Shown here: one piece after another, positions 1 through 64,000 of the stretch
Layout of the letters: each line of letters begins with the position of its first letter
Numbering within the stretch: the first letter of the stretch is position 1
Source: Vampirovibrio sp.
GTDB taxonomy: Bacteria > Cyanobacteriota > Vampirovibrionia > Vampirovibrionales > JAJTHC01
Length of the DNA stretch: 64,000 bases
Direction: 5' to 3'
NCBI GenBank assembly: GCA_024998755.1
Contig: JACEUU010000002.1
Coordinates: forward strand, 76,783 to 140,782
Notes under the pieces: generated by a model
What the model was told of the DNA's origin: nothing
What the model saw: only the letters and a program-made list of their open reading frames with translations
Database searches by the model: none
Program-made: the position numbers and the translations under genes

Positions 1-2271
1 AGAGGCTTAAAAGAGTTTGCTATTTTTGGAACAGAGGGATTATCAGCATCCTACGCCAAGGAGGTATACTTTTCCAAAAATAGCTGTGGCGACTCATCGT
101 ATACTCCTTGGTTGGCTCTGATCGTCCCTACTATTCGTGACAATGTAGAGATCAGCAGTTGGGCAGATTTTGATATTTGTACTCCTTTGTATAATAATAA
201 TGTTCATGGTGTTTATCCAAGTGTCAATAACGATAAATGGTGGAAATCAGACCCTAAAAATACTACCGTTACTGTTATAGAAGATGTACCTTTCAATATT
301 AAAAAAGTTGGTCTGTTTCCCTTAAAGAAGCTCACAATTAAAGGTAAGCTTGAGAGGCAAAGCTCAAACAAGTTCTATGTTAACAGTTTAACGGCACTTA
401 CGAATATCCCTGATGTTCAAGTTTCTTGGACTTATCCTTTACCCAATAATATACTTCCGAATTCTTGGGCTATTTGGTCAAGCAATCCCTATTATCTTGA
501 CAAAGCGAAACCGTTCAAGATTTTTGATAATGATTATGGAACCGTTCCTATAATTCAAGTTAATTCAAGGTACTTTCTAGAGTTAAATAATAGTACAGAA
601 CCAAATCCAGTAAACCCTAGTTCCTGGAACGCACAACCTTGTGAATTGATTGCGGATGATGGTTCTTTTGATTCTCCTAATGAAAGCGTTACCTGTAATT
701 TTATTTCCACTGGTCTTGAACCTTGGCGTTATTCCGATGATTATACTCAGTATAACATTGAATTTAAGGAACAGGGCTTAACTAAAAAGAAATTCCTTTC
801 TCAACGCAACACTTTCATACGATCTGACTGGGCAACTGTACCTGTTAAAAAGTATGTTAACCCCACACCTATTGCTGGGGCTGATACCATTAACGCTGAC
901 AGTTTTTCCAGACCTTATGTTATTAGAGATAATAGTGAAAACTATCTCTTCTACAACCTGATTAAAACCAACGGGCTTAATCGAACTAATCAACTTTACA
1001 GTTTTAATCCAACCAATCAACAAGTAGTCGCTGGTCCGGTGGTTAATTTGTATTGGGGCGATGTTGCAACACTTCGGTTAGCACAGGGTAAACGCGTCCT
1101 TTCTTATTCACCTCATAATAAGGTAGCGGTTACGGGTAATACCAGTACATATGGTAATGTTTATGCTTGGTATTATGATCGTGTAGATCAACCAGTGGCT
1201 ACGCTTAAAACAGGGGGTGTTGGTTTTAATTCTGCACAAGCTAACAATGCCAATGCAAACTACATTGCAGACCCTACAAGTACCTTAAATGCTTATCAAA
1301 CGAATCTAACTGCGGTTACTTCAGAAGGGTCTACGTTATACACGTTAAATTCAGTTACTGGTACATTAACACGGTATGTAACGCGCCTTGGTCAATATAA
1401 CCATGTACGCCAAAGTGAAACCAAACTAACTAGTGGCATTGTTAATGCAAGTAGTGCTATAGCGGTTTCACCTATGGACGATGGTCTTTATTTGCTAGAT
1501 GCGGCGAATAGAACCGTTCGGTATTACGCCGATAGACGGATGGGAGACGTAGCAACAACTACTTCTGTGGCAACCTTGGGGGCTAAGTTAGGGTCTACTG
1601 CGGGTGCTTATGCCAAAATTTTATCGAACAATATGAGAGACTTTGAAGCATTGTTAGATACTAGTTCGAATCCACCGCCCTTTGATGACGTTGCCTCTTT
1701 CGGTGAATTGCAGGCTTGTATCACTAGCTGTACAAATCCAAGTGTGAATGAAGCTGCACAATATTTTGTTAATAATAAGGCTACAGTGTTTACACCAATG
1801 GAATCGATTTCTGACCCAGTACCCAATGATATATTTCATGTGAACGACTTAAATGCTTATGTAACTCAGCAAAATACAGGGGGGCTATCCGCAACACAAA
1901 CAACGGTAACCATTCCAACACAAGGTGTTGCACGTTCATTTACAACACCACAAGCAACTACGCCTACAGGGTTAGCGGTTTCAAAAGCAACAGGGCTGGT
2001 TTATGTGTTAGATTCTACTCTCGGCACAGTTACCGTGGGTACAACGGTTACTAGAACCTTAAATATTCACGTTTACAATCCAAATGGAACTTTCATTGAA
2101 ACCTTGGCATTAAATGTTTCCGACGACCAATTTGTCAATGATGATGATCGATTAGTGCCACAAAGCGGACAAATTATGCGTTTGACTTTAGATGAGAAAA
2201 AATCTCAGTTTTATGTTCACGTTGAAAATAATGGTAGAACTTACCAGTTTGGTGTAGACAGACAAATTTAA
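1..2271 (+). CDS. Large hypothetical secreted or surface protein, 5'-truncated by the window. Repeated Thr/Val/Tyr-rich beta-strand motifs (LYTLNSVTGTL, GLYLLDAANRTVRYY, LVYVLDSTLGTVTV) suggest an NHL/beta-propeller-like fold.
   Basis: The frame is open from nt 1 with no in-frame stop, so the TTG at 112 is unlikely to be the true start. Stop at 2269-2271. No family confidently recognised. Confidence 0.5.
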   Translation, partial: RGLKEFAIFGTEGLSASYAKEVYFSKNSCGDSSYTPWLALIVPTIRDNVEISSWADFDICTPLYNNNVHGVYPSVNNDKWWKSDPKNTTVTVIEDVPFNIKKVGLFPLKKLTIKGKLERQSSNKFYVNSLTALTNIPDVQVSWTYPLPNNILPNSWAIWSSNPYYLDKAKPFKIFDNDYGTVPIIQVNSRYFLELNNSTEPNPVNPSSWNAQPCELIADDGSFDSPNESVTCNFISTGLEPWRYSDDYTQYNIEFKEQGLTKKKFLSQRNTFIRSDWATVPVKKYVNPTPIAGADTINADSFSRPYVIRDNSENYLFYNLIKTNGLNRTNQLYSFNPTNQQVVAGPVVNLYWGDVATLRLAQGKRVLSYSPHNKVAVTGNTSTYGNVYAWYYDRVDQPVATLKTGGVGFNSAQANNANANYIADPTSTLNAYQTNLTAVTSEGSTLYTLNSVTGTLTRYVTRLGQYNHVRQSETKLTSGIVNASSAIAVSPMDDGLYLLDAANRTVRYYADRRMGDVATTTSVATLGAKLGSTAGAYAKILSNNMRDFEALLDTSSNPPPFDDVASFGELQACITSCTNPSVNEAAQYFVNNKATVFTPMESISDPVPNDIFHVNDLNAYVTQQNTGGLSATQTTVTIPTQGVARSFTTPQATTPTGLAVSKATGLVYVLDSTLGTVTVGTTVTRTLNIHVYNPNGTFIETLALNVSDDQFVNDDDRLVPQSGQIMRLTLDEKKSQFYVHVENNGRTYQFGVDRQI

Positions 2272-2384
2272 AGTGCCACAAGGCTTTTAACCTTAAAAAA
2301 AACTTACAGGCAGATTCTCTCTTTCTTGGAAATGAGCGGTCTGCCTGTAAGTTTTGGTATCAAACAATACTAGTTCAAAGCTTA

Positions 2385-2528
2385 AATAGCGTAAAATCTT
2401 GGAGCGGGAGACCACGAGGGTCTCCCCTACAAATCCCCCTCTCCTCTTGGGAGAGGGTTGGGGTGAGGGTTTTTCCCTTTATGGGCGAACCCTTGTGGTC
2501 GCACGACGATGATGTAAATCTAAACACG
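2385..2528. repeat. GC-rich palindromic intergenic repeat (family 2). Contains ccctctcc-tctt-gggagaggg and ggggtgagggttttt modules and ends in aaacacgctattt.
   Basis: Near-identical modules recur at 16900-17217, 28697-28773 and 54476-54567. Confidence 0.5.
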
Positions 2529-2675
2529 CTATTTAAGCTTTTAGTTGGTAATTAATAGCCCATACCAATCTTCCCCTCTAAATAGACGATGTTGAAACCC
2601 ATCACTTTTGCCGATACTTTACATATCTACTGCGATAGCAATACAAGCATTAAGCAATAAGGCGGTTTTAAGTAT

Positions 2676-9842: not shown

Positions 9843-10040
9843 AGGGACAAATAAAATCCTAAGATATGAAAAAAGAAAGCGAAAAGTGGTGGAGCCATCG
9901 TCAAGAAAAGTGGGTGGATAATGGTTTTAAATGACTAAGCCTATTAGCTAACAGAACAAGATACAATAATAACATATCATTAGCTTATTTCAAAGTATAT
10001 CATCTAAAAAAAATATGGCTATACCTTTACAGCTTAACTT

Positions 10041-14982: not shown

Positions 14983-15732
14983 TTATACAGCGACGGCTTG
15001 TTTTTTCGCCAAACACGCTTGGGCTAACGATTCAAACACCAATCGTCCCAGCCCTGTGCGTTGAACCGTCTCGTCTGCCCACCAGTTGCGTTCAGGGTGT
15101 GGCATTAAGCCTAGAACATTGCCGGCTTCATTACAAATACCCGCAATCCCATTAGCAGACCCATTAACTGTAGCCCCCGCCTCATACCGAAAAACCACTT
15201 GTCCGTTGCCTTCTAGTTGAGCTAGGGTTTCTTCATCGGCGGTGTAGCAGCCTTCCCCGTGTGCAATGGGGAAATCCACCAGTTGATTTTTTTGATACGC
15301 ACTGGTAAAGGGGGCTTTCACCTGCTCCACCCGAAGTTGCGTGTGTTGTTCACACAAAAATTGCTGATGATGATTTGCCACCAACGCACCGGGTAACAGA
15401 CCGCTTTCGGTTAAAACTTGAAACCCATTGCAAATGCCTAATACGGGAAAACCATTGTTGGCAAAGGCTTTAATTCTTCCCATCAGTGGCGAACGGTTTG
15501 CCATAGCACCGCACCGCAAATAATCGCCATAGCTAAACCCACCGGGAATAATTACGGCATCCACCAAGGTTTCTAACGGTTGCGGATTTTCCTCATCTTG
15601 CCAAAGAAAAACGGTAGTGGCGTTCATTACATTACGCACGGCTTCTGCACAATCTTCATCGCAATTGCTTCCTAAAAACCGAGCAATCCCGATGGTTAAA
15701 GCCTGTTTGTTGATAGTCATCATCATCATCAT
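14983..15732 (-). CDS. purQ: Phosphoribosylformylglycinamidine synthase subunit PurQ (glutaminase).
   Basis: GGFSYGDYLRCGAMA...ICNGFQ..HGEG class-I glutamine amidotransferase motifs. It starts with five consecutive ATG codons. Confidence 0.8.
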   Translation of the reverse strand: MMMMMTINKQALTIGIARFLGSNCDEDCAEAVRNVMNATTVFLWQDEENPQPLETLVDAVIIPGGFSYGDYLRCGAMANRSPLMGRIKAFANNGFPVLGICNGFQVLTESGLLPGALVANHHQQFLCEQHTQLRVEQVKAPFTSAYQKNQLVDFPIAHGEGCYTADEETLAQLEGNGQVVFRYEAGATVNGSANGIAGICNEAGNVLGLMPHPERNWWADETVQRTGLGRLVFESLAQACLAKKQAVAV

Positions 15733-17217: not shown

Positions 17218-17314
17218 CTACTTGAATCCGCCTATAAAAATACCGATTAATCGGTTGTTATCTTTGTAATCCTAGTTAAAAGTTCTTGTAATTCTGCTTG
17301 ACGGTTCGACATTA

Positions 17315-21122: not shown

Positions 21123-21138
21123 TATAAGGAACTCAATG

Positions 21139-24361: not shown

Positions 24362-25537
24362 TTATTTGCCAAATAGCGAAATCGAAGTGGCTTCACCGCC
24401 GTTCAGCTTAACAAGAAATTCGTGAAGTTCATTCATTAATTGAGCCGTTTCTGGCTCAATTGAAAAATGATTGTCTCTACAATCTACAAAACTTTCAATT
24501 CGCCCTTCTATTGACGGGTTTTTTTTAATGAACTGCTTTTCTTCCTCTGTGAATAATGAGGTTCGAGTTTCATATTGATGAATGGCTTCCTTGTATATTT
24601 TTAGTTCACGCACAGCAAAAGTTATTTGATTTGGTTCTACCGATTTGAGGTTAGGTAAGTTGCTTACTTCTTCTAAAACTTCACAAGTTTCTCTTAACAA
24701 CACTTGCAAAATAAGTGGATTTACTTTTTCCTTTTCTGATAAGGATTGAATCAACAACAACAGGGGTTCGCAAGGCTTGGTAGGTGCGTCTGGATAGAGA
24801 TTTCTTGTTAGGGTTTCTCTCTGTTCATGTTTTGCTTTGATTTCAGCTAAAGTTTTTTCAATTTTAGGTACTATTTCTTTATTTTTAGACATATAAGCTT
24901 CAATAAAACCTTCTTTTCCTCCTCGTATAAAGTTAATGCTAATTTGGTGTTCTGCTTCTTTTCTAGCATTAAATTGAATACGATTCATAGCATTACCAAT
25001 ATAATTTGCAAACACCATGAGTTTATCCATTTTTTCATCTAACTGATTTATTTGATGGGACTGTAAACTAGATTGCTTATATAAAAAAAAGAGATCGCTT
25101 TTCGCCTCCAGTAACAATCGTCGCATCTCGGAAAGTCCAGACTCCAAATCTTCGCCATTCGTTCTGTTTTTGAGTTGCTTTTCTAATCTATCCAACTTTT
25201 TTTCCATCTGGGCTAGTGCCGTCTGCACTTCGTGCAACGCTCCCTTGTTTGCATGGTTCATTTTTGAATAAAGTAAACCCACCCCAAAAACAGCACACAA
25301 ACTAGCAATAAAGCCCATGGTAGCCAAAACAACAGACGTTTTATCTGCTACCGGCACTTCCCTAATAACAACCTTCGGTGGCACGGATGGCTTTTCAGAA
25401 GATTTTTTCTCAAAGCTATCGACTACTTCAATCGGGTTGTCTTTTCCCGCATCTCGTGGGCTTGCCAGTTTCTTCCCCTGCCCAAGCGGAGGATAAGAAT
25501 TGCTGAAGGTTAAAGCGGTAGGCACTATTGTCATCAT
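24362..25537 (-). CDS. Hypothetical membrane-anchored coiled-coil protein.
   Basis: One transmembrane helix (VVLATMGFIASLCAVFGVGLLY) followed by long heptad-rich helical sequence. Confidence 0.4.
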   Translation of the reverse strand: MMTIVPTALTFSNSYPPLGQGKKLASPRDAGKDNPIEVVDSFEKKSSEKPSVPPKVVIREVPVADKTSVVLATMGFIASLCAVFGVGLLYSKMNHANKGALHEVQTALAQMEKKLDRLEKQLKNRTNGEDLESGLSEMRRLLLEAKSDLFFLYKQSSLQSHQINQLDEKMDKLMVFANYIGNAMNRIQFNARKEAEHQISINFIRGGKEGFIEAYMSKNKEIVPKIEKTLAEIKAKHEQRETLTRNLYPDAPTKPCEPLLLLIQSLSEKEKVNPLILQVLLRETCEVLEEVSNLPNLKSVEPNQITFAVRELKIYKEAIHQYETRTSLFTEEEKQFIKKNPSIEGRIESFVDCRDNHFSIEPETAQLMNELHEFLVKLNGGEATSISLFGK

Positions 25538-25692
25538 TTTTCAGGATCGTTCCATTCACTTTCAGAAGCAAGCCAAAGCCTCTAAGATCATTATCTAACA
25601 AACACATTAACGTGCGAACAACCGCTTTTGTGCTAAAATAGCACCAACGAATTTAACCGCTACTGGATTTTAGAAAAGACACCGAATTTGCG

Positions 25693-27537
25693 ATGATGAT
25701 GAAAATTTCCACCCTGTTTGCCTCTACCTTACGAGACGTTCCTGCTGACGCCGAAGTGGTCAGCCACCAACTGCTATTGCGGGCGGGCTACATTCGCCGT
25801 ATTACCAGTGGCGTCTACAGTTACCTACCCCTCATGTGGCGAACCCTACAAAAAATTAGCACCATCGTACGGGAAGAAATGAATCGTGCCAATGCTCAAG
25901 AATTGCTGATGCCCATTCTACAACCTCGGGAATTATGGGAATCTTCAGGACGGTGGAGCGTTTATGGCGACGAACTAATGCGGCTAAAAGACCGCCACCA
26001 AAGAGATTTCTGTCTTGCCCCAACAGGTGAAGAGGTCATCACCCAACTAGCTCAAATTGAAGTAAAATCTTACCGGCAATTGCCACTCAACCTCTATCAA
26101 GTTTCTAATAAATATCGCGATGAGCGTCGCCCTCGGTTTGGGCTATTGCGTGGGCGTGAATTTATTATGAAGGATGCTTATAGCTTTCACGCCAACCAAG
26201 CCTGCTTAGACCGTGAATACGAAGTAATGGCAGAAGCCTACACCGCTATTTTTAACCGATGCGGTGTAAAAACCAAGATGGTTGCCAGTGATTCTGGGGC
26301 AATTGGCGGAGCAGTAAGCCACGAATTTATGATGTTGACAGGCTATCAAGCCGAAGCCCAACAATCAGGCGAAAACGATGTGGTTCATTGTGAAACTTCG
26401 GGGTATGCGGCTAATAGCGAAAAAGCGGTGTCCATTCCGCAACCGCAAGCCGTAGATGGTGCTGATACATTCAGCCAATATAACGCCACAACCAACGTAG
26501 AAACCCCTTACACTGATACGATTGAAAAATTGTGTAAAAAGCTAAAATGTTCTGCAGAAGTGATTTGCAAAACACTGTTATATGTAAAAGATGAAACGGA
26601 TTTTATCGCCGTGTTGATGCGGGGCGATTATGATGTGGAAGAAACCAAGCTGAAGAACGCCTTGGGTGCATTAACCCTTCGTATGGCGACAGAAGAAGAA
26701 TTGACAAGGCTTTACGAAACCAAAAAAGGCTTCGTTGGTTATTATGAGGCTTTATGTTCAGGTGAAACTGTTGATTTAACTAGCGTTAAAGGCAAAGATG
26801 GCACACCCGTTAGCCTGTTGGTGGATAAAACGGTAGTATCAATGAAAAACTTTGTCATAGCCAATATGGAAGCCCACGTTCATTGGGTTAACGCCAATTG
26901 GGCAGGCAATTGTTGCCAAGCTGAAGGCATCACTGTGGCGGATGTTCGCACCGTGAAAGCAGGCGATCTATGCGTTGAAAGCAATCAACCGTTGAGTATT
27001 ACTCGAGGGATTGAAGTCGGCAATATTTTCCAATTGGGCACGAAGTATTCCGAAAGTATGCAAGCCACTTACACCGCTGAAGATGGCACAGAACAACCGT
27101 TTGTGATGGGTTGCTACGGTATTGGCGTTAGCCGTGTAGCTGCTTCCGCCGTGGAACGCTACCACGATGCGAACGGTATTATCTGGCCTACAGCGATTGC
27201 CCCGTATCAAGTGATTATTGTACCTGCCAACGTAAAAGATGAAACCCAGTGGGCATTGGCAAATCAGCTTTACGCCGAACTTAAAACCGTTTTGGGCGAT
27301 GAGGTGTTGCTAGATGACCGTGATGAGCGGGCAGGCGTGAAGTTTAAAGATGCGGATTTAATGGGCTTCCCGTTAAGAATTACGGTTGGTAAATTAGCGG
27401 GTGAAGGCAAGGTAGAAGCCAAACTTCGGGCATCAAAAGACCTCATTATTTTAGATGCCAGTGATGTTGCCACCCAAGCAAAAACCCTATTAGCCCAGTG
27501 GGACGCCCTTTCGTGGGAACCGCCTGTAACCCCATAA
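25693..27537 (+). CDS. proS: Prolyl-tRNA synthetase, bacterial type with an INS editing domain.
   Basis: Class II aaRS motifs plus the inserted editing domain, ~600 aa. It starts ATGATGATG. Confidence 0.8.
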   Translation: MMMKISTLFASTLRDVPADAEVVSHQLLLRAGYIRRITSGVYSYLPLMWRTLQKISTIVREEMNRANAQELLMPILQPRELWESSGRWSVYGDELMRLKDRHQRDFCLAPTGEEVITQLAQIEVKSYRQLPLNLYQVSNKYRDERRPRFGLLRGREFIMKDAYSFHANQACLDREYEVMAEAYTAIFNRCGVKTKMVASDSGAIGGAVSHEFMMLTGYQAEAQQSGENDVVHCETSGYAANSEKAVSIPQPQAVDGADTFSQYNATTNVETPYTDTIEKLCKKLKCSAEVICKTLLYVKDETDFIAVLMRGDYDVEETKLKNALGALTLRMATEEELTRLYETKKGFVGYYEALCSGETVDLTSVKGKDGTPVSLLVDKTVVSMKNFVIANMEAHVHWVNANWAGNCCQAEGITVADVRTVKAGDLCVESNQPLSITRGIEVGNIFQLGTKYSESMQATYTAEDGTEQPFVMGCYGIGVSRVAASAVERYHDANGIIWPTAIAPYQVIIVPANVKDETQWALANQLYAELKTVLGDEVLLDDRDERAGVKFKDADLMGFPLRITVGKLAGEGKVEAKLRASKDLIILDASDVATQAKTLLAQWDALSWEPPVTP

Positions 27538-27624: not shown

Positions 27625-28689
27625 ATGATGATGAGTATTTCCCTATTTGAAACCATTGCCCAACACGGGCACGAAAGCGTCCTAACTTGCTACGATTTTA
27701 AATCTGGCTTAAAAGGCTTTATTGGGTTGCACAATACCACATTAGGTCCTGGTTTGGGCGGGTGTCGTGTGATGCGATACCCTTCCGAAGCGGCTGCCTT
27801 CCAAGATATGCTTGCTCTTTCCGAAGCAATGACTTATAAAAACAGCTTGGCTGGCTTACCTTATGGTGGCGGTAAAGCCGTTATTTGGTTGCAAGAAGGG
27901 CAAGAAAAAACACCGGAACTGATTGACGCCATGGGGCGGTGCATTAAATCGCTCAACGGTAGTTATTTCACCGCAACAGATATTGGTTCTACCAGTGCAG
28001 ATATGAAACGCATGAGAGCTATTTCCCCTTACGTTTCAGCTCTTTCGCCTGAAGACGGAGGACTGGGCGATTCTGCTATTTTAACAGGCTTGGGCGTTTA
28101 CCAAGGCATTCGGGCAGCGGTGAAACATCGGTTAGGTAAAACCTCATTAGATGGCGTAAAAATTGCCATTCAAGGAGCTGGAAAAGTAGCCTACCATATG
28201 TTAAGCCACCTAACCCAAGAAGATGTAACCGTTTACCTAACAGATACGAATGAAGAAGCCATTGCAAAATGCCAAGCAGCTTATCCAACCATCAAGGTTG
28301 TTGCCCCTTCGGAAATTTGGCATCAGCCCGTAGATATTCTTTCCCCTAACGCCATTGGCGGAACAATTACTGATGAAGTCATTGCCAATTCAACGGCAAC
28401 CATTATTGCTGGCGGTGCTAATAACCCCTTGCGTGATAGAGGCGTTGCCACAACCGCAGCAACAGCAGAAGTTTTGTTCGCTCCGGATTTTGCGATTAAT
28501 TCAGGGGGCGTCATTGTGCTAAGCACGGAACTAGCCAAAGGCACAATTGAAGAAGCAAAAACTAAAACATTGGGTATTTATGATACGGCGTTGCGGGTGT
28601 TTGAAGTAGCTAAAGCTAGAAAAATCAACACATTAGAAGCAGCTATTGCCCTAGCCAAAGAAAATATCACTAATAACGCTAAAGGCTAA
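27625..28689 (+). CDS. Glu/Leu/Phe/Val dehydrogenase-family amino-acid dehydrogenase (Leu/Phe-DH-like).
   Basis: GLPYGGGKAV catalytic-lysine motif and an NAD Rossmann GxGxVA. Size is ~354 aa. Confidence 0.65.
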   Translation: MMMSISLFETIAQHGHESVLTCYDFKSGLKGFIGLHNTTLGPGLGGCRVMRYPSEAAAFQDMLALSEAMTYKNSLAGLPYGGGKAVIWLQEGQEKTPELIDAMGRCIKSLNGSYFTATDIGSTSADMKRMRAISPYVSALSPEDGGLGDSAILTGLGVYQGIRAAVKHRLGKTSLDGVKIAIQGAGKVAYHMLSHLTQEDVTVYLTDTNEEAIAKCQAAYPTIKVVAPSEIWHQPVDILSPNAIGGTITDEVIANSTATIIAGGANNPLRDRGVATTAATAEVLFAPDFAINSGGVIVLSTELAKGTIEEAKTKTLGIYDTALRVFEVAKARKINTLEAAIALAKENITNNAKG

Positions 28690-28696
28690 AACTAAT

Positions 28697-28773: not shown

Positions 28774-28780
28774 ATTAGTA

Positions 28781-30991: not shown

Positions 30992-33355
30992 TTAAGAACC
31001 TTGATATAACTTAGAATAAACCCAAATGCCTTCAAAAACGTGTTCAACATAATGGCGTGTTTGGTCATAAGGAATGGTTTCAACAAACAAATCCGGTGAT
31101 TGTGCGAACACTTCCTGCCGAACATTAACCCATTCCGCAACGGCACCTGGGCCAGCATTATACGCCGCCACAACCAATAACGGATGCTGTTGAAGCTGAT
31201 TATTTAAATACTGCAAATAAGCCGAACCCAAGGTAATATTCGTCTTCGGATCCATTAATTGAAGCGATGAAACGGGTGGTTGCTTTAAACTTCTAGCCAT
31301 ATCATTAGCAGTAGAGGGCAATAACTGCATCAAACCAACCGCCTTGGCAGGGCTCACTACCATGGGGTTAAAGGAACTTTCCTGACGCATAAGTGCCATG
31401 GTCAAATAGGGGCTAATTTTTTCACGTTCAGCTTGGACTTGAACAATCGCAGGGTAATGTAGCGGAAATAACAATTGATACAACGTTTTAGGGGCATGAT
31501 ACCGAGATTCAACCGTATGCGGTACATCTAAGCTCGACAAATAATCCCGAATAACCCGTAAGCTGGCATCATACTGGTCTTGTTCCACCTTAGACCAAGC
31601 GGAAAGCACCACTTGTTCCACCGAATTTTCAGGGAGGGTTTGGCTAATTAACAAATCTACATCATCAAAGGCTTGTATCTCATTCAGCTCGCGAACTTGA
31701 GAAGATAACTGCTTGGGTACTCGGGAAGATTTCGCTAAATAATCTTCCAGCCAAGCATCTGGATTCGACGGATTTTTTTCCAGTAGTGGTAATCCTCCCG
31801 CCATGTTGCCTAAACCAAAGCCACTGGCTTCTTTAATGTTATTAAGGTAGGCATTTGCCCTAAACGCATAATAGGTGTAAGGGTATTTTGATTGAATGAC
31901 TTCAAACGCATCAGTAGCATCTAGGTTTTGCCCCATTAATTGATGAGAAACGGCCTTCCAAAACAGCACGGCAGGGGCTTCAATACTAGCGGGATACTGT
32001 GCCAAAAACGCATCTGCTTGGCTAATAACTTTACCAAACGATTTGGTAATAAATTGGTGGCGAATGACTTCAGAACTAGCAAACGGTGCAACTCTATCTT
32101 TAGGAAACTGGGTGGCAATTTTTTCATAAGCAGGAAGAGCCAATTTGTCATCTGCTTGGCTTATAAACCATGCCAAACCCAATTTGTTTTGTTGACTGGT
32201 ATTGCCTAATGCCACTAATTGAGGAATTGCTTTTGCTTTCCCTATTTTGGCTACATATTGTTCTAGTACGGGTTGTAAAGCTTTCACAGGAAAGTCTACC
32301 GTATTCAACCAACTGGTTAAATTCACCTTAAACGAATCCATTTTACCTTGATGTAGCAACAATTCCAAGTAAACTAGCCCTGCAGAATTAGCACGGAAGC
32401 CTTTTTTCAAAATAGTATCAACCATTGCCCAATCATTAGCTTTAGCAAAAACATTGGCAACTAAAGCCCGTTGCTCAAAATTCAGGATATCATTTACTTT
32501 AGCTAATTGCTTGGCAATTTCTAAGCTGTAAGTACCGTCAGGCGATTGCTTTAAGTAAGTAATCCAAGCTTGTTGGGTTTCTTTTCCCAAACTATTGCCT
32601 TGCGAAGAAAGCGACAGTTGCTGATAAATTTGACCTAAAAAGTAGTTCGCCCCAATAGCGTAATTAGATTGTGGGAACGTTTTCTGCAATTGCAATAGCG
32701 TTTCTAACGATTTTTCCCACTGTTTTGCCCGTACTTGGGATAATCCTAATTCATACATGGCAACAGCAGCCAACGCATTACCTTCAGTGCCTCTATCAAT
32801 GACTTTTTTTAGGCGGATTTGCGTTAAATCTTCCCGAGGCACTTGGCTATAAAGATCTGCTAAATGAAGTGAAATGCTAGATTCTAAACCAGGGTAATAA
32901 GGCTCTACTTTTAAAAACAAGTCAATAGCCCGTTTGGTTTGCCCCGCTTTTTTGGCAACTAAGGCTTGTTTAAACAAGCTTTGCACTTGCGAACGAGAAT
33001 ACCCATCTGCCCCAGCATTAGGCTGAAAAATAGTAACCGCTCCTCTACCAAACAGCCCAGCCAAAGGTCCATTACCGGAAACACCCACATTCCAAAGCCA
33101 ATAAACACCCGCTAAAATAATAGCTCCAGCTACAACAAATGGGAATAATGAAAAACTAGGTGGACGCTGACCACCTCTTCTTCCCATGTGCTGACGATTT
33201 GAATTCACAAATGGAGATTTAGGGGATTGCTTAAAAGGGTTTGACATAAATAAGCCTTGTAAAAAACCAAAAGTAGAAGCGGTTCTAGCTGATGTAACCA
33301 ATGAGCGACGCCCTGTATTATGGGGTGGTGATTGCAATCTGGTCATCATCATCAT
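30992..33355 (-). CDS. slt: Soluble lytic murein transglycosylase (Slt-like).
   Basis: C-terminal SLT domain (LMRQESSFNPMVVSPAKAVGLMQLLPSTA) preceded by a long superhelical region. It starts ATGATGATGATG. Confidence 0.7.
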   Translation of the reverse strand: MMMMTRLQSPPHNTGRRSLVTSARTASTFGFLQGLFMSNPFKQSPKSPFVNSNRQHMGRRGGQRPPSFSLFPFVVAGAIILAGVYWLWNVGVSGNGPLAGLFGRGAVTIFQPNAGADGYSRSQVQSLFKQALVAKKAGQTKRAIDLFLKVEPYYPGLESSISLHLADLYSQVPREDLTQIRLKKVIDRGTEGNALAAVAMYELGLSQVRAKQWEKSLETLLQLQKTFPQSNYAIGANYFLGQIYQQLSLSSQGNSLGKETQQAWITYLKQSPDGTYSLEIAKQLAKVNDILNFEQRALVANVFAKANDWAMVDTILKKGFRANSAGLVYLELLLHQGKMDSFKVNLTSWLNTVDFPVKALQPVLEQYVAKIGKAKAIPQLVALGNTSQQNKLGLAWFISQADDKLALPAYEKIATQFPKDRVAPFASSEVIRHQFITKSFGKVISQADAFLAQYPASIEAPAVLFWKAVSHQLMGQNLDATDAFEVIQSKYPYTYYAFRANAYLNNIKEASGFGLGNMAGGLPLLEKNPSNPDAWLEDYLAKSSRVPKQLSSQVRELNEIQAFDDVDLLISQTLPENSVEQVVLSAWSKVEQDQYDASLRVIRDYLSSLDVPHTVESRYHAPKTLYQLLFPLHYPAIVQVQAEREKISPYLTMALMRQESSFNPMVVSPAKAVGLMQLLPSTANDMARSLKQPPVSSLQLMDPKTNITLGSAYLQYLNNQLQQHPLLVVAAYNAGPGAVAEWVNVRQEVFAQSPDLFVETIPYDQTRHYVEHVFEGIWVYSKLYQGS

Positions 33356-43654: not shown

Positions 43655-43861
43655 ATGATGGGTAGTAATGTGAATGGAAGTAATGGTGCAATATTAACAG
43701 GCACATTAATTGGGGCAGGTTTTGGGTTAAAAGGGATGTCAGACCAACAAGCCAACAAGGTTATCTCCAGCACAACAATAGGTTTAACAGCAAGCAAAAC
43801 ACCCCTAGTTAACCAACCAGTTAAACAGGGGTGTTTTGATATAGTAAAAACGCTAAACTAA
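43655..43861 (+). CDS. Small hypothetical Gly-rich protein (68 aa) with a Gly-zipper-like hydrophobic segment.
   Basis: AGGGGA lies ~9 nt upstream of an ATGATG start. GAILTGTLIGAGFGLKG. Confidence 0.3.
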   Translation: MMGSNVNGSNGAILTGTLIGAGFGLKGMSDQQANKVISSTTIGLTASKTPLVNQPVKQGCFDIVKTLN

Positions 43862-44142
43862 CTAACGGCTATAGAAGAAGCAAACGCTCCTCTAGTCAAC
43901 GTGCTGCTTGTTCTAACCAAAGAAACCGTGGTTCTCTTTTGAAACTGAAAGACCACTGCTTTTTCAGGAAAAAAGCTAGAAGCTAGCCTATTTTCCGCAA
44001 CAATTAACGTAGAACCGGCTGGTTGCTTGGTTGAACGAGCTAATGAAACAGAATCCAGAATAGAAGTAACAGGGGGAAAGCTAGCCAAACCCAACAAATT
44101 GGACTGCATGGCATTAGCTGGGGAAAGTAACATCATCATCAT
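43858..44142 (-). CDS. Hypothetical protein downstream of the flagellin gene (possibly FlaG-like).
   Basis: Its position 3' of the flagellin gene and its size (~94 aa). It starts ATGATGATGATG. No strong motif. Confidence 0.3.
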   Translation of the reverse strand: MMMMLLSPANAMQSNLLGLASFPPVTSILDSVSLARSTKQPAGSTLIVAENRLASSFFPEKAVVFQFQKRTTVSLVRTSSTLTRGAFASSIAVS

Positions 44143-44473: not shown

Positions 44474-45346
44474 TTATTGTTGTAATAATTGTAACGCTAA
44501 CTGAGGAATTTGATTGGCTTGCGAAAGAATTTGAGCAGATGCCTGTTGCAATACTTGGTTACGGGTTAATTCTGCACTTTCTTTGGCTACATCGGTATTA
44601 CGAATACGAGATTCCGACGCTGATTGACTTTCAATGTTTAAGCTCAGGTTGTTAAACGTACCATCTAACCGGTTAATCATAGCACCTAAGGAAGCCCTGC
44701 GGTTGTTCACCTTCTGCAATGCAGAATCCAACCGTTCTAACACCTTCAAAGAAGAGCCACTATTCATAACGTTTAAGGTTGTTGTTGTGCCAGTTAACCC
44801 TACTAAATCACGGATATTAACTGAATCAAAAGGGTTAACCCCACCAATATTAGCCAAATCAATACGGTCTACAGCACTGTTATAATTGGCACCAACTTGC
44901 ATATAGTAGTTGGAAATACTACCATCTAACAATGACCGACCATTAAATTGTGTACCCGCAGCAATACGGTTAATATCTACAGCTAACTGAGAAATTTCAG
45001 AAGTAATAGCACTACGTTGGCCTGTAGAGTATGTATCGTTAGCAGCCTGAACGGTTAATTCCCGCATCCGTTGAAGGTTGTCGGTCAAGGCTTGCATCGT
45101 ACCATCCATAATGTTTAGTACGTTAATACCGTCTTGTACGTTGTTACCAGCCTGTTGAGACCCTCTAATTTGCGTTCTTAACGATTCTGAAATTTGCAAA
45201 CCAGCAGCATCATCGCTAGCTTTGTTGATTTTAAATCCAGACGCCAATTTCTCGTAGGATTTTGACTGCATTCTGGTATTTTTAGACAATAAACGCTGAG
45301 CGTTTAATGACTGAATGTTGGTGTTAATAATGATACCCATCATCAT
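44474..45346 (-). CDS. fliC: Flagellin (short, ~290 aa).
   Basis: Conserved flagellin N-terminus (IINTNIQSLNAQRLL..., INKASDDAAGLQIS) and C-terminus (QANQIPQLALQLLQQ). GGAG lies upstream of the ATGATGATG start. Confidence 0.8.
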   Translation of the reverse strand: MMMGIIINTNIQSLNAQRLLSKNTRMQSKSYEKLASGFKINKASDDAAGLQISESLRTQIRGSQQAGNNVQDGINVLNIMDGTMQALTDNLQRMRELTVQAANDTYSTGQRSAITSEISQLAVDINRIAAGTQFNGRSLLDGSISNYYMQVGANYNSAVDRIDLANIGGVNPFDSVNIRDLVGLTGTTTTLNVMNSGSSLKVLERLDSALQKVNNRRASLGAMINRLDGTFNNLSLNIESQSASESRIRNTDVAKESAELTRNQVLQQASAQILSQANQIPQLALQLLQQ

Positions 45347-46136: not shown

Positions 46137-47447
46137 ATGATGATGATGACTCACTTAATTGTAGTTGGTGCCCAATGGGGCGATGAAGGCAAAGCCAAAG
46201 TGGTAGACCAACTAGCAGAATTTGCAGATATGGTTATACGCTCGCAAGGTGGTAGTAATGCAGGGCATACCGTCAAATTTAAAGGCGAAACCTTTAAATT
46301 TCATCACCTCCCTTCTGGTTTGCTTTATGAAGATAAAACTTGTATAATTGGTACAGGGGTCGTGTTAGCACCAGATTTTTTGCAGGAAGAATTAGATAGC
46401 ATTCACGCCAAAGGCTATTCTACCCAAAATCTTAAAATTAGCGACCGTTGCCATCTTACTTTCCCCTACCACATTGCTCAAGACAAGCAACAGGAAACAC
46501 TACGTTCTACCTGTACTAACGGTACAAAAATAGGCACTACGGGTAAAGGCATCGGGCCTACCTACATGGACAAAGTAGGCAGAATGGGCATTCGGGTAGC
46601 CGATTTATTTGAACCTGAAACCGTCTTAAAAGAACAATTAGCCTCTATACTCACGCAAAAAGAACTTCAGCAGCTATTTACCCTTGAAGAACTATACACA
46701 TTAGCTATGCGGTATAAAACCATTTTAGCCCCGTATGCGTGCGATACATTAGCCATACTACAAAATGCCTTAAAAGCCGGCAAGCAATTGCTATTTGAGG
46801 GGGCTCAAGGTACGTTGCTTGATATCGATTTTGGTACTTATCCTTATGTGACCAGTTCTAACGCTACAGCGGGTGGTGCTTGTACTGGCACCGGCGTAGG
46901 CCCCAGTAAAATTGACGCTACATTAGGCGTAATGAAAGCCTATTTAACCAGAGTAGGCGAAGGTCCTTTCCCGACAGAACTTTCAGACACCGTGATTGGT
47001 GAACGCATTTGTGAAATTGGGGTAGAATACGGTACTACCACAGGGCGTAAACGTAGGGTAGGCTGGTTTGATGCTGTTATAGCTAGGTTTGGTGTTGAAG
47101 TAAATGGGTTAGATGGCATTGCCTTAACAAAGCTAGATGTCTTAGATTCTTTTGAAACCATTGATGTTTGTACGGGCTATGTACATATAGAAACAGGTCA
47201 ACATTATGATCGGTTACCTACCAGCTTAACGCTTTTAAGCCAATTAAAACCGATTTATGAAACCCATGCCGGCTGGCTTACGGATACAACCGATTGTAAA
47301 ACGTTTCAAGCATTACCTGCTAATTGCCAAGCCTATGTAAAACGTTTAGAACAACTGATGGATTGTCCCGTTTGGATGGTTTCCGTTGGGCCAGACCGTG
47401 AACAAACGTTTATGCGTCGGCACCCATTTTCGTTGGAAACGGTTTAA
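46137..47447 (+). CDS. purA: Adenylosuccinate synthetase.
   Basis: VVGAQWGDEGKAK P-loop and GxGPTY, ~435 aa. It starts ATGATGATGATG. Confidence 0.85.
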   Translation: MMMMTHLIVVGAQWGDEGKAKVVDQLAEFADMVIRSQGGSNAGHTVKFKGETFKFHHLPSGLLYEDKTCIIGTGVVLAPDFLQEELDSIHAKGYSTQNLKISDRCHLTFPYHIAQDKQQETLRSTCTNGTKIGTTGKGIGPTYMDKVGRMGIRVADLFEPETVLKEQLASILTQKELQQLFTLEELYTLAMRYKTILAPYACDTLAILQNALKAGKQLLFEGAQGTLLDIDFGTYPYVTSSNATAGGACTGTGVGPSKIDATLGVMKAYLTRVGEGPFPTELSDTVIGERICEIGVEYGTTTGRKRRVGWFDAVIARFGVEVNGLDGIALTKLDVLDSFETIDVCTGYVHIETGQHYDRLPTSLTLLSQLKPIYETHAGWLTDTTDCKTFQALPANCQAYVKRLEQLMDCPVWMVSVGPDREQTFMRRHPFSLETV

Positions 47448-50181: not shown

Positions 50182-51012
50182 CTATTTTCGATAAATTGAA
50201 ATCAATGGTAAGCTAGGGGCTTTTTCTTTGATGAGCTGTTCAATATGATCCGCTTCCGTTTCGGAAATGGTTCGTAATTGTTGACTTTTCACTAGCGGTT
50301 CACTGTGGTTACCGCGTGAATCTACCACCCATTCCATCGGGTACGGACGCTTAGGCGTGTTCAGCTGAACTTCATCAGGAGCAATTCTAGCAATTAAACT
50401 GGTTAAGGCATCCACATCTTCCGTATTGGTGGGCATAAACATACATTGCAACGAAAGTTTGCCTTTGTACACCTGCCGAAATGCTTCAATACCGCTAATA
50501 ATCCCCTCAAGAGAAATACCCTCAACAGGTCTATTCATCCGCTGAAGGACGCTATCGGTTGCAGCATCTAGCTTGCACGCTACTTGGTCTGCTAGCCTTA
50601 AATCTTGTTGAACGGCAGGATCGTTTAACAAGGTGGCGTTGGTTAACACCATTACGGGCTTGCCAGTATAGTCTTTTATAAACCGAATCACTTCCCCTAA
50701 GTTCAACGCTAAAGTGGGTTCGCCATTACCGCTTAGGGTAATAATATCGGCTTTTTCCCAATCGCTTAAGCGTAAGTCTCGTTCCAATTTATCGGTAGAA
50801 ACATATATAGCCCGAGTGGCGGTTTTTAGCTGAATATCGCCTAATTGGCAGTAAACGCAATTAAATGAGCAAGTAGAAGTATTCAACAATAAATCTATCC
50901 CAAGAGACCACCCTAACCGCCATGAATGGACTGGTCCGTAAACGGAAGACTCAAACCCTCCGTTGGATGCGGGTTTTTCAGCATTTTGAATGCTATCTGC
51001 AATGGTCATCAT
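50182..51012 (-). CDS. Radical SAM protein.
   Basis: CSFNCVYC (CxxxCxxC) and a GNGEPTL glycine-rich SAM motif. The real start ATGATG is at 51012; the track ORF extends artefactually across the tRNA. Confidence 0.6.
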   Translation of the reverse strand: MMTIADSIQNAEKPASNGGFESSVYGPVHSWRLGWSLGIDLLLNTSTCSFNCVYCQLGDIQLKTATRAIYVSTDKLERDLRLSDWEKADIITLSGNGEPTLALNLGEVIRFIKDYTGKPVMVLTNATLLNDPAVQQDLRLADQVACKLDAATDSVLQRMNRPVEGISLEGIISGIEAFRQVYKGKLSLQCMFMPTNTEDVDALTSLIARIAPDEVQLNTPKRPYPMEWVVDSRGNHSEPLVKSQQLRTISETEADHIEQLIKEKAPSLPLISIYRK

Positions 51013-51071: not shown

Positions 51072-51148
51072 CTACCAATGATGGGGCGGCTGATGGGAAT
51101 TGAACCCACGAATGCCGGTACCACAAACCGGAGCCTTAACCACTTGGC
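51072..51148 (-). tRNA. tRNA-His (anticodon GTG) with an encoded G-1 and the CCA end.
   Basis: Cloverleaf folded by eye: G-1 plus a 7-bp acceptor stem, anticodon arm ccggt-TTGTGGT-accgg, T-arm gtggg-TTCAATT-cccat, discriminator C and CCA. The 3' half resembles E. coli tRNA-His. Confidence 0.8.
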
Positions 51149-51397
51149 TACAACCGCCACATCGTTGATAGTAACGCTCAACACCTTTATTTATAACCAA
51201 AACATGGTAGGCGTGCAAGTGTTTTTTGAAATTATCCCAAAGTTTCCTGAATTTTATGATGTTGTTGTCTCTATGGCAGTCTTCTGCTTGAAGCTTAAGC
51301 ATTTCTAGGGTAAAGTTTTATAAGCGTTATTTTATTTTCCCATACTTATTTCCCGTATTAACGTGTTTCTTATTCTAACTGGCACGTTAACAGCATA

Positions 51398-52669
51398 ATG
51401 GCGACCTTTTTTCCTATGATGATGCCCAGCACAACAACTTCTATCCCTTCTGCTACAACTACATTTAAAGGCTTGCCAGAACCAGCCAAACAAACTGGTC
51501 AACTACCCCTTTATGTATTTGCCCAACTGAGCGTTCTAAAACAAGCCGTAAAAGAGTCTGGCATTTCTTTGGTAGATTTAGGTATGGGCAACCCAGACCA
51601 ACCCACACCAAGCTTAATTGTTGATGCGATGGCAGAAGCGGTTCGTTTACCAGCGAACCATTTTTACCCAGATTTTGATGGGAAGGCCTCATTTCGGCAA
51701 GCTATTGCCAGCTTTATGCACCGCAGGCATAAAATTGAAGGCTTAAACCCTGATACGCAAGTGCAACCCCTTATTGGGTCAAAAGAGGGGATAGCTAACC
51801 TAATTTTGGGATATTTAGATGCCGATAGCGTTTGCCTTGTGCCTTCCCTGTATTATCCTGTTTATATGCGGGCTACTACCATTGTGAATGGTACGCCTTA
51901 TTATATGCCGTTGCTTGAAGAAAACGACTTTTTGCCAGATTTAGACGCCATTCCCGCCGATGTGTTGGCAAAATCCAAAATGTTATTACTAAACTATCCG
52001 AATAATCCTACTGGGCGGGAAGCTCCTCGGTGGTTTTATGAAAAAGCAGTCGCTTTTGCTAGGCAACATGGGTTGGTTTTAGTGAGCGATTTAGCTTACG
52101 GCGAAATTGCTTACGATGGCTTCAAACCACTATCAATCTTTGAAATTGAAGGAGCAATGGATGTTGCCATTGAATTCCATTCGTTTTCAAAAACCTTTAA
52201 CATGGCGGGTTTTAGACTAGGTTTTGCTATTGGTAATGCTGCTATCATTAAGGTGTTATACAAAGCAAAAACAACTATTGATTACGGCGTTTGCAATGCC
52301 ATTCAAGATGGCGGTACGGTAGCACTCAACAATGCGGAAAGCCTCGTACCCCCTATTGTAACTGAATATCAAAAACGCAGAGATTATTTAGTGCCTCAAC
52401 TCAAAGCATTGGGCTGGGATTGCACATTACCTAAAGGTGGTTTTTATCTTTGGTTGAAAGTACCGCCGTGTTTTGACGGGTCTTCTTATGCGTGGGTAGA
52501 ATTTTTAATGAAACGCACGGGCGTTGTAGTAACTCCTGGTTTGGCGTTTGGTAAAGATGGCGACAATTACTTCCGTGTTTCCTTGGTTTCGCCAGTTGAA
52601 ACCTTGAAAGAAGCAATTAAAAGACTTTGCGAAGTGGATATTCATTACGATATGCCCTTACCCGTCTAA
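51398..52669 (+). CDS. PLP-dependent class I/II aminotransferase (LL-DAP, alanine or aspartate aminotransferase family).
   Basis: NYPNNPTG and SFSKTFNMAGFRLG (lysine and arginine motifs). An alternative ATGATGATG start is at 51416. Confidence 0.65.
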   Translation: MATFFPMMMPSTTTSIPSATTTFKGLPEPAKQTGQLPLYVFAQLSVLKQAVKESGISLVDLGMGNPDQPTPSLIVDAMAEAVRLPANHFYPDFDGKASFRQAIASFMHRRHKIEGLNPDTQVQPLIGSKEGIANLILGYLDADSVCLVPSLYYPVYMRATTIVNGTPYYMPLLEENDFLPDLDAIPADVLAKSKMLLLNYPNNPTGREAPRWFYEKAVAFARQHGLVLVSDLAYGEIAYDGFKPLSIFEIEGAMDVAIEFHSFSKTFNMAGFRLGFAIGNAAIIKVLYKAKTTIDYGVCNAIQDGGTVALNNAESLVPPIVTEYQKRRDYLVPQLKALGWDCTLPKGGFYLWLKVPPCFDGSSYAWVEFLMKRTGVVVTPGLAFGKDGDNYFRVSLVSPVETLKEAIKRLCEVDIHYDMPLPV

Positions 52670-62521: not shown

Positions 62522-63405
62522 GACTTACCTCCAACTTTGCTTTTAACTGAAGCTAAAGCCACTGTTTTAACCTGTTGTAACTCCGTCATTAATGTTTTAA
62601 ACGGGGGAATGTTTGTATCTCGTTCTAATAAAACGCCTTTTAAATTAGGGCACTGCGGATAAATAGCCCCTAGTAAGGCAAAAACCTCATCGCAAATGGG
62701 TTCGCCGTGGGTGTCAATTAAAAACGATTCGGTGGCTAAATGCCCTGCAATATGAATTTCCACGACACGTTCTAGGGGTAAGCCAGCAACAAAATCTTCG
62801 ACATTTTCCTGATGATTTTGGCAGTTCACGAAAATATTATTCACATCAAGCAGAATGCCACAATCGGCGGTTTCAACAATGGTTCGCATAAAATCCGCTT
62901 CGGTATACTGGTTGATACTGGGAAAACGGGCGTAGGTTGAGGCATTTTCAATTAAAAACGGACGCTGAAATTTATCTTGTAAAACTTTGATTTTATCTGC
63001 ACAAACTTGAACGGCTTCACGGGTGAAGGGTAGGGGGATTAAATCATTTAAATACCGCCCATTAACCGAGCTAAAACTGAGGTGGTCGCTAAACCACAGT
63101 GGATTGATTGTTTCAAATAATGCGGTTAATTCAGCTAAATAAGTAGGGTTAATAGGGTCTACACTACCAAGAGAAAGACCGACACCATGCGAAGTAATGG
63201 GGTAGCCTTTGGCAATAAGGGCTTCTAGGTTTTTGGCGGTTTGCCCGCCTTTACCCATAAAATTTTCTGGGATGAGTTCAATCCATTCCAGCAAGGTAGG
63301 TGGTTGGGCGGGGGGTAGAATATCGTCATAATACTCATTTTGCATGCCAATACCAAACCCGATATTGGGGATATTTTTAATAGATTTAAAGAAGGGTGTA
63401 GACAT
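62518..63405 (-). CDS. DUF692-family TIM-barrel di-iron enzyme (MbnB / BufB / TglH-like RiPP maturase).
   Basis: WIELIPENFMGKGG...HGVGLSLGS.DP...WFSDHLSF......IPLPFTREAV...LIENASTY are all hallmark DUF692 blocks. It overlaps the DUF2063 gene by 4 nt (ATGA). Confidence 0.7.
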   Translation of the reverse strand: MSTPFFKSIKNIPNIGFGIGMQNEYYDDILPPAQPPTLLEWIELIPENFMGKGGQTAKNLEALIAKGYPITSHGVGLSLGSVDPINPTYLAELTALFETINPLWFSDHLSFSSVNGRYLNDLIPLPFTREAVQVCADKIKVLQDKFQRPFLIENASTYARFPSINQYTEADFMRTIVETADCGILLDVNNIFVNCQNHQENVEDFVAGLPLERVVEIHIAGHLATESFLIDTHGEPICDEVFALLGAIYPQCPNLKGVLLERDTNIPPFKTLMTELQQVKTVALASVKSKVGGKS

Positions 63406-63445
63406 AAGTTTTTAGTGGCTTCAACTATTTAGGGAGTTTTATATT

Positions 63446-64000
63446 TGAAGTTACGGAAAAAGGGCAAGGTAAAATAGAAGGGACATTATTCCACCTCTCA
63501 TAGGATACCCCACCCCCATGACTACCTTTGCCGACATCCAAATTCAACAAGCCACCCCCACTCACAAATTCCTAGAGGAAATGAACCAAACCCTACCATG
63601 GCAACTATTTGAAACCATCCTCAAAACACACATCCACCACAAACCCAACGGCAGACCACCCTACAAACGCCTACTACTGCTCAAAATGAACCTCCTCAAA
63701 ATATGGTTCAATCTCTCCTATGAACAAACCGAATTTCAATGCCACGACAGACTCTCCTTCCGAAAGTTTCTCGGCTTCTCCTTAGAATCCCCCATCCCTG
63801 AAGCCACGACACTCGAAAACTTCCAACACGAACTGCAAAACACCCCAGCCCAAGAAGCCCTTTTCTTAGCCTTAGACACCTTCTTCCAAGAGAACAACCT
63901 CATTCTTAAAGAAGGCAACTTGGTAGATGCCACCTTTATTAAAGCCAATAGCAAACAGAGAAAAAAGCCTGAAGACCAGAGCGACCCTGATGCCACTTAT
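63446..64000 (+). mobile_element. IS5-family insertion sequence, copy 3, truncated by the window end. Its left end lies 41 bp upstream of the DUF692 gene start.
   Basis: Nt 63446-64000 are identical to 17315-17869. Confidence 0.8.
63518..64000 (+). CDS. IS5-family DDE transposase (copy 3, 3'-partial).
   Basis: Identical N-terminal 161 aa. Confidence 0.75.
   Translation, partial: MTTFADIQIQQATPTHKFLEEMNQTLPWQLFETILKTHIHHKPNGRPPYKRLLLLKMNLLKIWFNLSYEQTEFQCHDRLSFRKFLGFSLESPIPEATTLENFQHELQNTPAQEALFLALDTFFQENNLILKEGNLVDATFIKANSKQRKKPEDQSDPDATY

Follow-up and report, generated by a model that had tools for sequence, protein, structure and literature searches.

Several described systems place repeated sequence or repeated start codons at the 5' ends of genes. 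The contingency loci of Haemophilus, Neisseria and Campylobacter are phase-variable genes with such repeats, and alternative in-frame starts are known from the alpha and beta forms of bacterial IF2, from the long and short forms of CheA and from eukaryotic tandem AUGs with leaky scanning. Artificial poly(AUG) messengers, from work in the Khorana laboratory in the 1960s, reportedly bind ribosomes and fMet-tRNA and direct the synthesis of fMet-initiated polymethionine in vitro without a Shine-Dalgarno (SD) sequence. In the Bacteroidia, initiation is SD-independent and is tuned by a 'Kozak-like' context, and AUG trinucleotides are under-represented both before and after the start codon (Baez et al. 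2019, PMC6847099). We analyzed a 64,000-nucleotide stretch of Vampirovibrio sp. DNA (contig JACEUU010000002.1 of assembly GCA_024998755.1, positions 76,783 to 140,782; hereafter the window) in which many genes start with a run of two to five consecutive ATG codons. The organism is a member of the Vampirovibrionia (Melainabacteria) lineage of non-photosynthetic Cyanobacteriota. The named homologues of its PurA, ProS and PurQ came mostly from Vampirovibrionia/Melainabacteria and also from photosynthetic cyanobacteria, with a few other phyla in the case of PurQ, and the same 90% protein clusters contained NCBI proteins from metagenome-assembled genomes (MAGs) named 'Vampirovibrio sp.' or 'Candidatus Melainabacteria bacterium'.

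Tandem ATG codons at gene starts

Every (ATG)n of two or more units was placed on the reading frames of the window and on a hand-curated list of 48 genes. At 8 loci, i.e., in 8 of the 48 genes or about one in six, a long open reading frame (ORF) had three to five ATGs in a row beginning precisely at its first ATG, while ATGATG alone was found at three further ORF starts (25537, 51012 and 43655). The runs and their genes are as follows.

14983-15732, minus strand: purQ (Pfam GATase_5), (ATG)5 at 15718..15732
25693-27537, plus strand: proS (Pfam), (ATG)3 at 25693..25701
27625-28689, plus strand: Glu/Leu/Phe/Val dehydrogenase (Pfam), (ATG)3 at 27625..27633
30992-33355, minus strand: SLT-domain lytic transglycosylase (Pfam), (ATG)4 at 33344..33355
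43858-44142, minus strand: 94-amino-acid (aa) ORF 3' of flagellin, no Pfam match, (ATG)4 at 44131..44142
44474-45346, minus strand: flagellin (Pfam), (ATG)3 at 45338..45346
46137-47447, plus strand: purA (Pfam), (ATG)4 at 46137..46148
51416-52669, plus strand: class I/II aminotransferase (Pfam), (ATG)3 at 51416..51424, probable start
24362-25537, minus strand: 391-aa ORF divergent from proS, no Pfam match, (ATG)2 at 25532..25537
50182-51012, minus strand: radical SAM gene (Pfam) just 3' of tRNA-His, (ATG)2 at 51007..51012, probable start
43655-43861, plus strand: doubtful 68-codon ORF, (ATG)2 at 43655..43660, a weak member at best

The initial annotation had counted at least ten genes with three to five ATGs. 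Eight of these stood, while 51012 and 43655 carry only two ATGs each, and the ATGATG start at 25537 was missing from its list. Its gene names agreed with Pfam for seven of the eight run genes, the ORF at 44142 having no match. A 67-aa gene called in a related contig (L095) near the place that matches the doubtful ORF at 43655 was found to be a different sequence. At 33355, 44142, 46137 and 15732 an in-frame stop codon lies 0-6 codons 5' of the run with no start codon between, indicating that translation begins within the run. The stop directly abuts the 5' end of the run in the SLT transglycosylase gene, and in purQ, which is separated from its upstream gene by a gap of 18 nt, the run is preceded by 6 open codons that include no start codon. 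The dehydrogenase gene has a GGA 7 nt 5' of its first ATG. The aminotransferase ORF has a second in-frame ATG at 51398, six codons 5' of the run, and a longer TTG-initiated ORF for the radical SAM gene would run into the tRNA-His (51082-51157).

The 9-mer ATGATGATG had 15 matches in the window, at 10 loci and on both strands, as compared to a mean of 0.31 in dinucleotide-preserving shuffles (n = 100), none of which reached 15. Two of these matches, at 2138 and 36906, were GAT-GAT-GAT, poly-Asp codons within genes. At the protein level, 8 of the 48 genes started with MMM where 0.014 were expected from the share of Met among internal residues (1.72%; binomial P = 2e-20), and Met occupied codon 2 in 10 of the 48 genes where 0.83 were expected. 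Inside the proteins MM occurred 5 times, vs 4.7 expected, and MMM did not occur at all, and the excess of Met runs is therefore limited to gene starts. Both the 9-mer count and the MMM count bear out the earlier view that the pattern is not due to chance.

Trinucleotide repeats of at least 3 units numbered 37 per 64 kb in the window vs 53 per 64 kb in unrelated genomes (1.4 Mb in total). Of the six window repeats with at least 4 units, four were ATG starts, and the first 10 codons of the window genes contained 8 ATG runs and only one other repeat. The latter is a (CAA)4 at 34631-34642 in the DnaJ gene (33446-34651, minus strand), where codons 4-7 form a stretch of Q just ahead of the J-domain motif MSQQQQQRDYYDVLGV. 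A general microsatellite instability was considered and rejected, since trinucleotide repeats in the window were not raised over the unrelated genomes.

We compared the runs with the usual N-termini of the encoded proteins. PurA usually starts with M-xx-VVVGAQWGDEGK and the window PurA reads MMMM-TH-LIVVGAQWGDEGK, with the last ATG as the canonical start. The P of the PAEAE motif in ProS, normally at index 14, is at index 16 in the window, and the last ATG aligns with the canonical start M[RK]xS..P. In flagellin, position 1 of the Flagellin_N profile corresponds to residue 7, and the distance from the last Met corresponds to the usual M-xxx-INTN. Since the last ATG represents the normal N-terminus in PurA, ProS and flagellin, it is the ancestral start of these genes, and the other ATGs are extra codons that have been inserted. 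The Ffh protein encoded on a related contig (L093) reads MMM-FDVLS; the usual Ffh N-terminus presumably begins with MF, which would make the last ATG the canonical start, and this appears to be the case here as well. PurQ differs in that in the clade its N-terminus is lengthened by a further ~8 residues behind the run, and its orthologues in the clade begin with M1-M4.

On the other hand, the spacing to an upstream purine patch pointed to the first ATG. Among the clade genes with a GGA 3-19 nt 5' of the start, the distance from GGA to the ATG had a median of 10 (interquartile range [IQR] 9-12) in single-ATG genes and, when measured to the first of the ATGs in a run, of 10 (IQR 9-11; P = 0.58), while the distance to the last ATG of the run had a median of 15 (P = 2e-6 vs single-ATG genes). 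The spacing thus matches the first ATG, and the run occupies the interval from the usual start position on the mRNA to the usual second codon. If the weak purine patch has any role in positioning ribosomes, the first ATG would be used, at least where a GGA exists, and many of the proteins would probably carry poly-Met N-termini.

Clade distribution and copy number

Starts were also counted by a uniform rule (non-overlapping ORFs of 100 codons or more, each taken from its first ATG) in contigs of relatives, which carry L-numbers here and are independent assemblies from ENA, JGI, Logan and NCBI. At least three ATGs were present at 6 of 52 starts in the window, at 6 of 21 in the other close-clade contigs and at 5 of 20 in same-species strains. 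The wider Vampirovibrionia had such a start only once in 42 (6/42 with at least two ATGs), and 80 unrelated genomes had none among 1,254 (13/1,254 with at least two). These unrelated controls included the loci of PurA relatives of ~50% identity that were among the matches listed in the genome-contig scan. The counts in the window, the close clade, the wider Vampirovibrionia and the unrelated genomes agree well with the proposal in the initial annotation that the starts are lineage-specific. A related species (L081) had three ATGs at a 1,095-aa ORF, three at a 317-aa ORF and two at PurA, while L093 had five at PurA and three at Ffh/SRP54, and L089 had three at ProS and two at the dehydrogenase. 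In the distant Vampirovibrionia L082, L083 and L090 the starts were mostly ATGATG (RbfA, sigma-70, GroEL, MurJ), with one run of three (PurA). When 120 homologues each of PurA, ProS and PurQ were inspected, Met runs of at least 3 were confined to the nearest relatives, plus the ProS of P0213/L092. The latter belongs to an independent lineage (GC content 51%), and its run of five was confirmed in DNA. Neither the 391-aa hypothetical protein nor a HAD-hydrolase alignment identified a relative when used to scan metagenome contigs.

The copy number of the PurA run, read from DNA, was four in the window and in L095/L096, five in L093/L094, at least four in L086 (whose contig begins within the run), two in L081, three in L082 and one in L083; protein calls extended the PurA Met run to at least 6. 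The divergence of purA from the window at four-fold sites was 0.55 (Jukes-Cantor [JC] ~1.0) for L093, L086 and L081 and 0.64 for L082, with a JC range of 1.0-1.4, and the upstream non-coding DNA could not be aligned. The runs of all four were nevertheless perfect ATG repeats. For nine neutral bases to remain unchanged at this divergence the probability is ~0.45^9 = 8e-4 per pairwise comparison.

The run of ProS had three copies in L087/L088 and L089 and one in L090/L091, and that of the dehydrogenase had three in L087, two in L089 and one in L090. The SLT transglycosylase run had four copies in L087. L095/L096 kept the four copies of the 94-aa ORF despite differing flanking bases and had three at flagellin. 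Between same-species strains, namely L087 (99.4% identical) and L095/L096 (92-94% identical; four-fold-site p = 0.059), which cover a divergence of 0.6-6%, copy number was equal at all 6 comparable runs. Runs can be gained or lost, as both ProS and the dehydrogenase have a single ATG in L090, whose ProS is 81% identical. The arrays thus behave as slow in-frame microsatellites in which the identity of the ATG is kept, and not hypervariable contingency repeats.

Possible decayed runs were found as ATGATAATG (M-I-M) at 36656-36664, at the start of a gene on the minus strand (36074-36664), and as MMMIM in L081 near 11402. A point mutation may have interrupted the run in both cases.

Gene callers did not place the start consistently. 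L095 has four ATGs at purA in the DNA (9992-10003) and the gene was called in ENA at 10001, i.e., at the last ATG, and, like this call, the NCBI MAG PurA proteins MCS6266294.1 and MCX5920415.1 (P0246 and P0259) begin with MTHL. Because callers choose different ATGs, the spread from M1 to M6 among the PurA cluster members represents lower bounds, and protein databases understate the runs.

Two PurQ orthologues (P0296 and P0297) have poly-Thr after the Met run (MMMMTTTTTQ and MMMITTTTQ), indicating that N-terminal low-complexity expansion in the clade goes beyond Met. The proS region is a mosaic relative to L087/L088, with L087 being 99.4% identical to the window over 26941-37538 and only 93% identical over 25031-26540, and having no blastn match over 26540-26941. 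The ProS protein of L087 is only 84% identical to that of the window. This pattern suggests that recombination has occurred within proS between strains.

Initiation context and possible explanations

We scored the SD signal by pairing the 22 nt 5' of each start with ACCUCCUUA, the canonical anti-SD, which was assumed for the clade. The mean predicted pairing energy was -3.44 kcal/mol for the window genes and -2.41 kcal/mol for random positions. Under the uniform ORF rule, the fraction of starts at or below -6 kcal/mol was 0.19 vs a background of 0.17 in the window and 0.10 vs 0.10 in the other clade contigs, as compared to 0.24 vs 0.13 in the wider Vampirovibrionia and 0.56 vs 0.12 in Ruminococcus/Oscillospiraceae (Firmicutes) controls. 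In a position matrix of 72 clade starts, the only upstream signal was a weak enrichment of A and G at -17 to -12, after which the bases were rich in T and poor in G. With a near-background signal in the window and the clade, initiation does not appear to be SD-led under the assumed anti-SD, and the combination of an SD signal at background with ORF starts that agree with homologue N-termini fits SD-independent initiation. The group with the least SD signal also had the most poly-ATG starts, an anecdotal correspondence that involves three groups only.

The observation in the initial annotation that most poly-ATG genes lack an obvious SD sequence was correct, but this is a lineage-wide property and is not special to those genes, as the mean pairing energy was -3.37 kcal/mol for poly-ATG genes and -3.46 kcal/mol for single-ATG genes. 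The implied link, that genes have poly-ATG starts because they lack an SD sequence, was not supported, since both sets have equally weak scores, and compensation for the SD sequence by the runs was rejected on the same ground. The energy required to open the region from -15 to +15 was 6.49 kcal/mol for the natural runs and 6.04 kcal/mol after the runs were collapsed to a single ATG (P = 0.64), and an opening of mRNA structure by the run was rejected since there was no gain over one ATG. Random codon inserts gave 7.91 kcal/mol and were more structured than the runs (P = 0.008). A TANNNT box ending 4-9 nt upstream was found at 1 of 17 poly-ATG sites and at 0 of 35 single-ATG sites, and sigma-70 promoter scans gave fewer matches than shuffles. 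Leaderless transcripts were rejected, with a -10 box at the proper distance at only that one site, and so was translational coupling to an upstream ORF ending at the TGA of the run, for which 7 of the 17 sites had no upstream start codon.

We propose that the poly-ATG starts are in-frame tandem start-codon arrays that were born by slippage, are kept by selection and provide redundant start sites, a reading to which we give a little less than an even chance. According to this proposal, the start codon gained one to four extra ATG triplets, for which slippage or duplication of the triplet would be the simplest route. Such gains are seen in many genes, unrelated to one another, within a single Vampirovibrionia clade. 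Copy number drifts between species and not between strains, and perfect repeats persist where neutral sites have been randomised. This persistence is directly observed in PurA, and we infer from it that selection has maintained the runs. Since the clade has almost no SD signal, the search for the start would rest mainly on codon-anticodon pairing, by which the 30S subunit and fMet-tRNA would find the start on an otherwise unanchored mRNA. Adjacent in-frame AUGs would multiply the productive registers and thereby raise the chance that 30S-fMet-tRNA locks on, which would be the putative benefit of the runs to initiation. No out-of-frame start codon is added, since (AUG)n gives UGA and GAU in its other two frames, and every choice of AUG would lead to a functional protein differing by 0-4 N-terminal Met. 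It is thus plausible that the runs are a feature of the initiation context, as first suggested. In a bolder version, (AUG)n would be a bacterial initiation signal of a kind not recognised before, an element under selection for ribosome capture that takes over part of the role of the SD sequence. Its multiplicity, a product of triplet slippage, would determine how likely initiation is for a considerable part of the proteome of the clade, and it would have arisen independently at least one more time (L092). We regard this version as possible but less likely than not.

Several observations weigh against the proposal that redundant start sites are selected. Poly-ATG and single-ATG genes did not differ in their predicted anti-SD pairing, and the run made the start no more accessible than one ATG. 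In-frame AUG is strongly over-represented right after the start codon, the reverse of the trend reported for the SD-less Bacteroidia. The close-clade sample beyond the window, from which the count of 6 in 21 starts was obtained, is small (~35 kb). As ATG is the sole Met codon, selection on the mRNA and selection on a poly-Met peptide are inseparable by sequence. Finally, repeated slippage could keep the arrays pure without any selection.

In a neutral explanation, start-codon slippage would be tolerated because an extra Met is harmless, and the runs would drift as functionless by-products under weak selection or in a small population. We consider it unlikely, though with a real share of the probability. 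The differences between species in PurA (two, three, four and five copies in DNA and at least six in protein) would be expected from it, as would the lack of a functional relation among the run genes, the second type of N-terminal repeat in DnaJ and the two possible decayed runs. The codon after the run begins with A in 7 of 10 window runs, which offers an ATGA micro-homology for slippage. However, codons 2-10 should then duplicate at least as often as the start codon, and ATG repeats outnumber other N-terminal repeats 8:1, with trinucleotide repeats overall not raised. The runs have also remained perfect across saturated synonymous divergence, the clade has more runs of at least three copies than of two, contrary to what simple birth and decay would give, and the six loci compared between strains had zero copy-number changes.

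Selection could instead act on the protein, for example if Met2 blocks methionine aminopeptidase and thereby affects stability or processing, or if the N-terminal Met residues serve as sacrificial oxidisable groups. A small residue after Met normally permits removal of the Met, which a second Met in this position would prevent. In 8 of 10 cases the run was followed by such a small residue (T, S, G or P). The runs are kept across species, and the position of the first ATG at the normal distance from the GGA patch indicates that the run is probably translated. We nevertheless find this explanation improbable, because the carriers are unrelated, ranging from cytoplasmic enzymes to flagellin (flagellar type III export) and the SLT lytic transglycosylase, which we take to be an envelope enzyme. 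Moreover, the length of the run varies from 2 to 6 within one orthologue, and Met was not enriched elsewhere, with internal MM at expectation.

The early ATGs might also be left untranslated and act as a docking site for the last one, either by pairing of UGAU with the AUCA immediately 5' of the anti-SD core, on a leaderless transcript or through a small upstream ORF. Some gene callers and the NCBI annotation do start at the last ATG, which is the canonical N-terminus in PurA, ProS and flagellin. This explanation seemed quite improbable, since the GGA spacing fits the first ATG and not the last, accessibility was not increased relative to a single ATG, and UGAU:AUCA amounts to only 4 bp. A -10-like box at the leaderless distance was limited to 1 of 17 sites, and an upstream ORF ending at the TGA of the run would have no start codon at 7 of the 17.

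Alternatively, (AUG)n could be a regulatory tag that is bound by an antisense (CAU)n RNA or by an RNA-binding protein, in which case the genes would form a co-regulated set tuned by copy number. The identical sequence at unrelated genes and the variation in copy number between species would be compatible with such a tag. All ATGATGATG/CATCATCAT sites in the window were gene starts or poly-Asp codons, leaving no antisense candidate in the 64 kb, Rfam found only one tRNA in the window, and the run genes had no common theme, which makes a tag very unlikely. An artefact of assembly, sequencing or gene calling has next to no chance of being the explanation, since callers do disagree on which ATG to use but the runs were read from DNA and recur at the same genes in the independent ENA, JGI, Logan and NCBI assemblies.

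Neighbouring features and comparison with known systems

The window also contained features apart from the poly-ATG genes. Two copies of an insertion sequence (IS) at 17313-18476 and 19961-21124, each 1,164 nt, are perfect and inverted relative to each other, and encode a 321-aa DDE_Tnp_1/DUF772 transposase. They flank 1,484 nt with two small ORFs (18500-18913 and 18920-19270), an arrangement that resembles a composite transposon. A further copy (63470-64000) is partial and leaves the window at its end, and the same transposase was found on short contigs (<2 kb) of the ENA GROS21-1 metagenomes. ARAGORN called a 101-nt tRNA-Ser(GCT) at 17019-17119, and Rfam at the gathering threshold found only the tRNA-His (51085-51157). 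The former region overlaps a 42-nt GC-rich palindrome (16951-16992 / 17040-17081), and the tRNA-Ser(GCT) call is probably false. The divergent flagellin and purA genes are separated by a 790-nt intergenic region (45347-46136) with a terminator-like hairpin at 45597-45618 and an (ACT)4 at 45686-45697, which matched no Rfam family. A ProS 56% identical to that of the window (P0176) lies on a 274-kb contig annotated as 'Microcystis phage MaAM05'.

The literature that we searched contained no description of genome-wide poly-ATG starts in bacteria, an absence that is no proof of novelty, and the habit is apparently undescribed. How bacteria choose a start without an SD sequence is an open question. 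If the proposal that redundant start codons are selected is true, the clade would provide a natural experiment in which the number of start codons varies from 1 to 6 at orthologous genes, and the contribution of codon-anticodon capture would become directly testable. The runs would also exemplify a coding microsatellite that is kept perfect while the synonymous sites of the same gene saturate. Since the callers and the NCBI annotation disagree on the ATG, N-termini, protein clustering and start-site training sets are inconsistent for this clade.

Among the known systems, the Bacteroidia resemble the clade in having almost no SD signal and in that the feature is lineage-wide and not gene-specific. 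With almost no SD signal in the clade, the start must be selected through the start codon itself and the sequence around it. An A(-3)-type Kozak-like signal, on the other hand, was not evident in the 72 clade starts, which had the weak purine patch at -17 to -12 only. The poly(AUG) messengers suggest that (AUG)n alone can act as an initiation site, but those were artificial templates used in vitro. Genes with alternative-start isoforms likewise offer several in-frame AUGs near the beginning of the ORF, but many codons lie between them and each single gene gives isoforms with distinct functions; here, however, the AUGs are adjacent, the products would differ by only 1-4 Met before the canonical N-terminus, and many genes are involved. 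As in contingency loci, the runs are short tandem repeats at the 5' ends of genes. Slipped-strand mispairing is their probable origin, and their copy number is not the same in related genomes. Unlike contingency loci, they are 3-nt in-frame arrays at codon 1, such that every copy number keeps the ORF intact and there is no on/off switch. They are also short (2-6 units), the same between strains at 6 of 6 loci, and located in housekeeping genes rather than in genes for surface structures or host interaction. Taken together, the poly-ATG start is a real, clade-restricted feature that can be regarded as a variant of an SD-independent initiation context or, equally, of the coding microsatellites.

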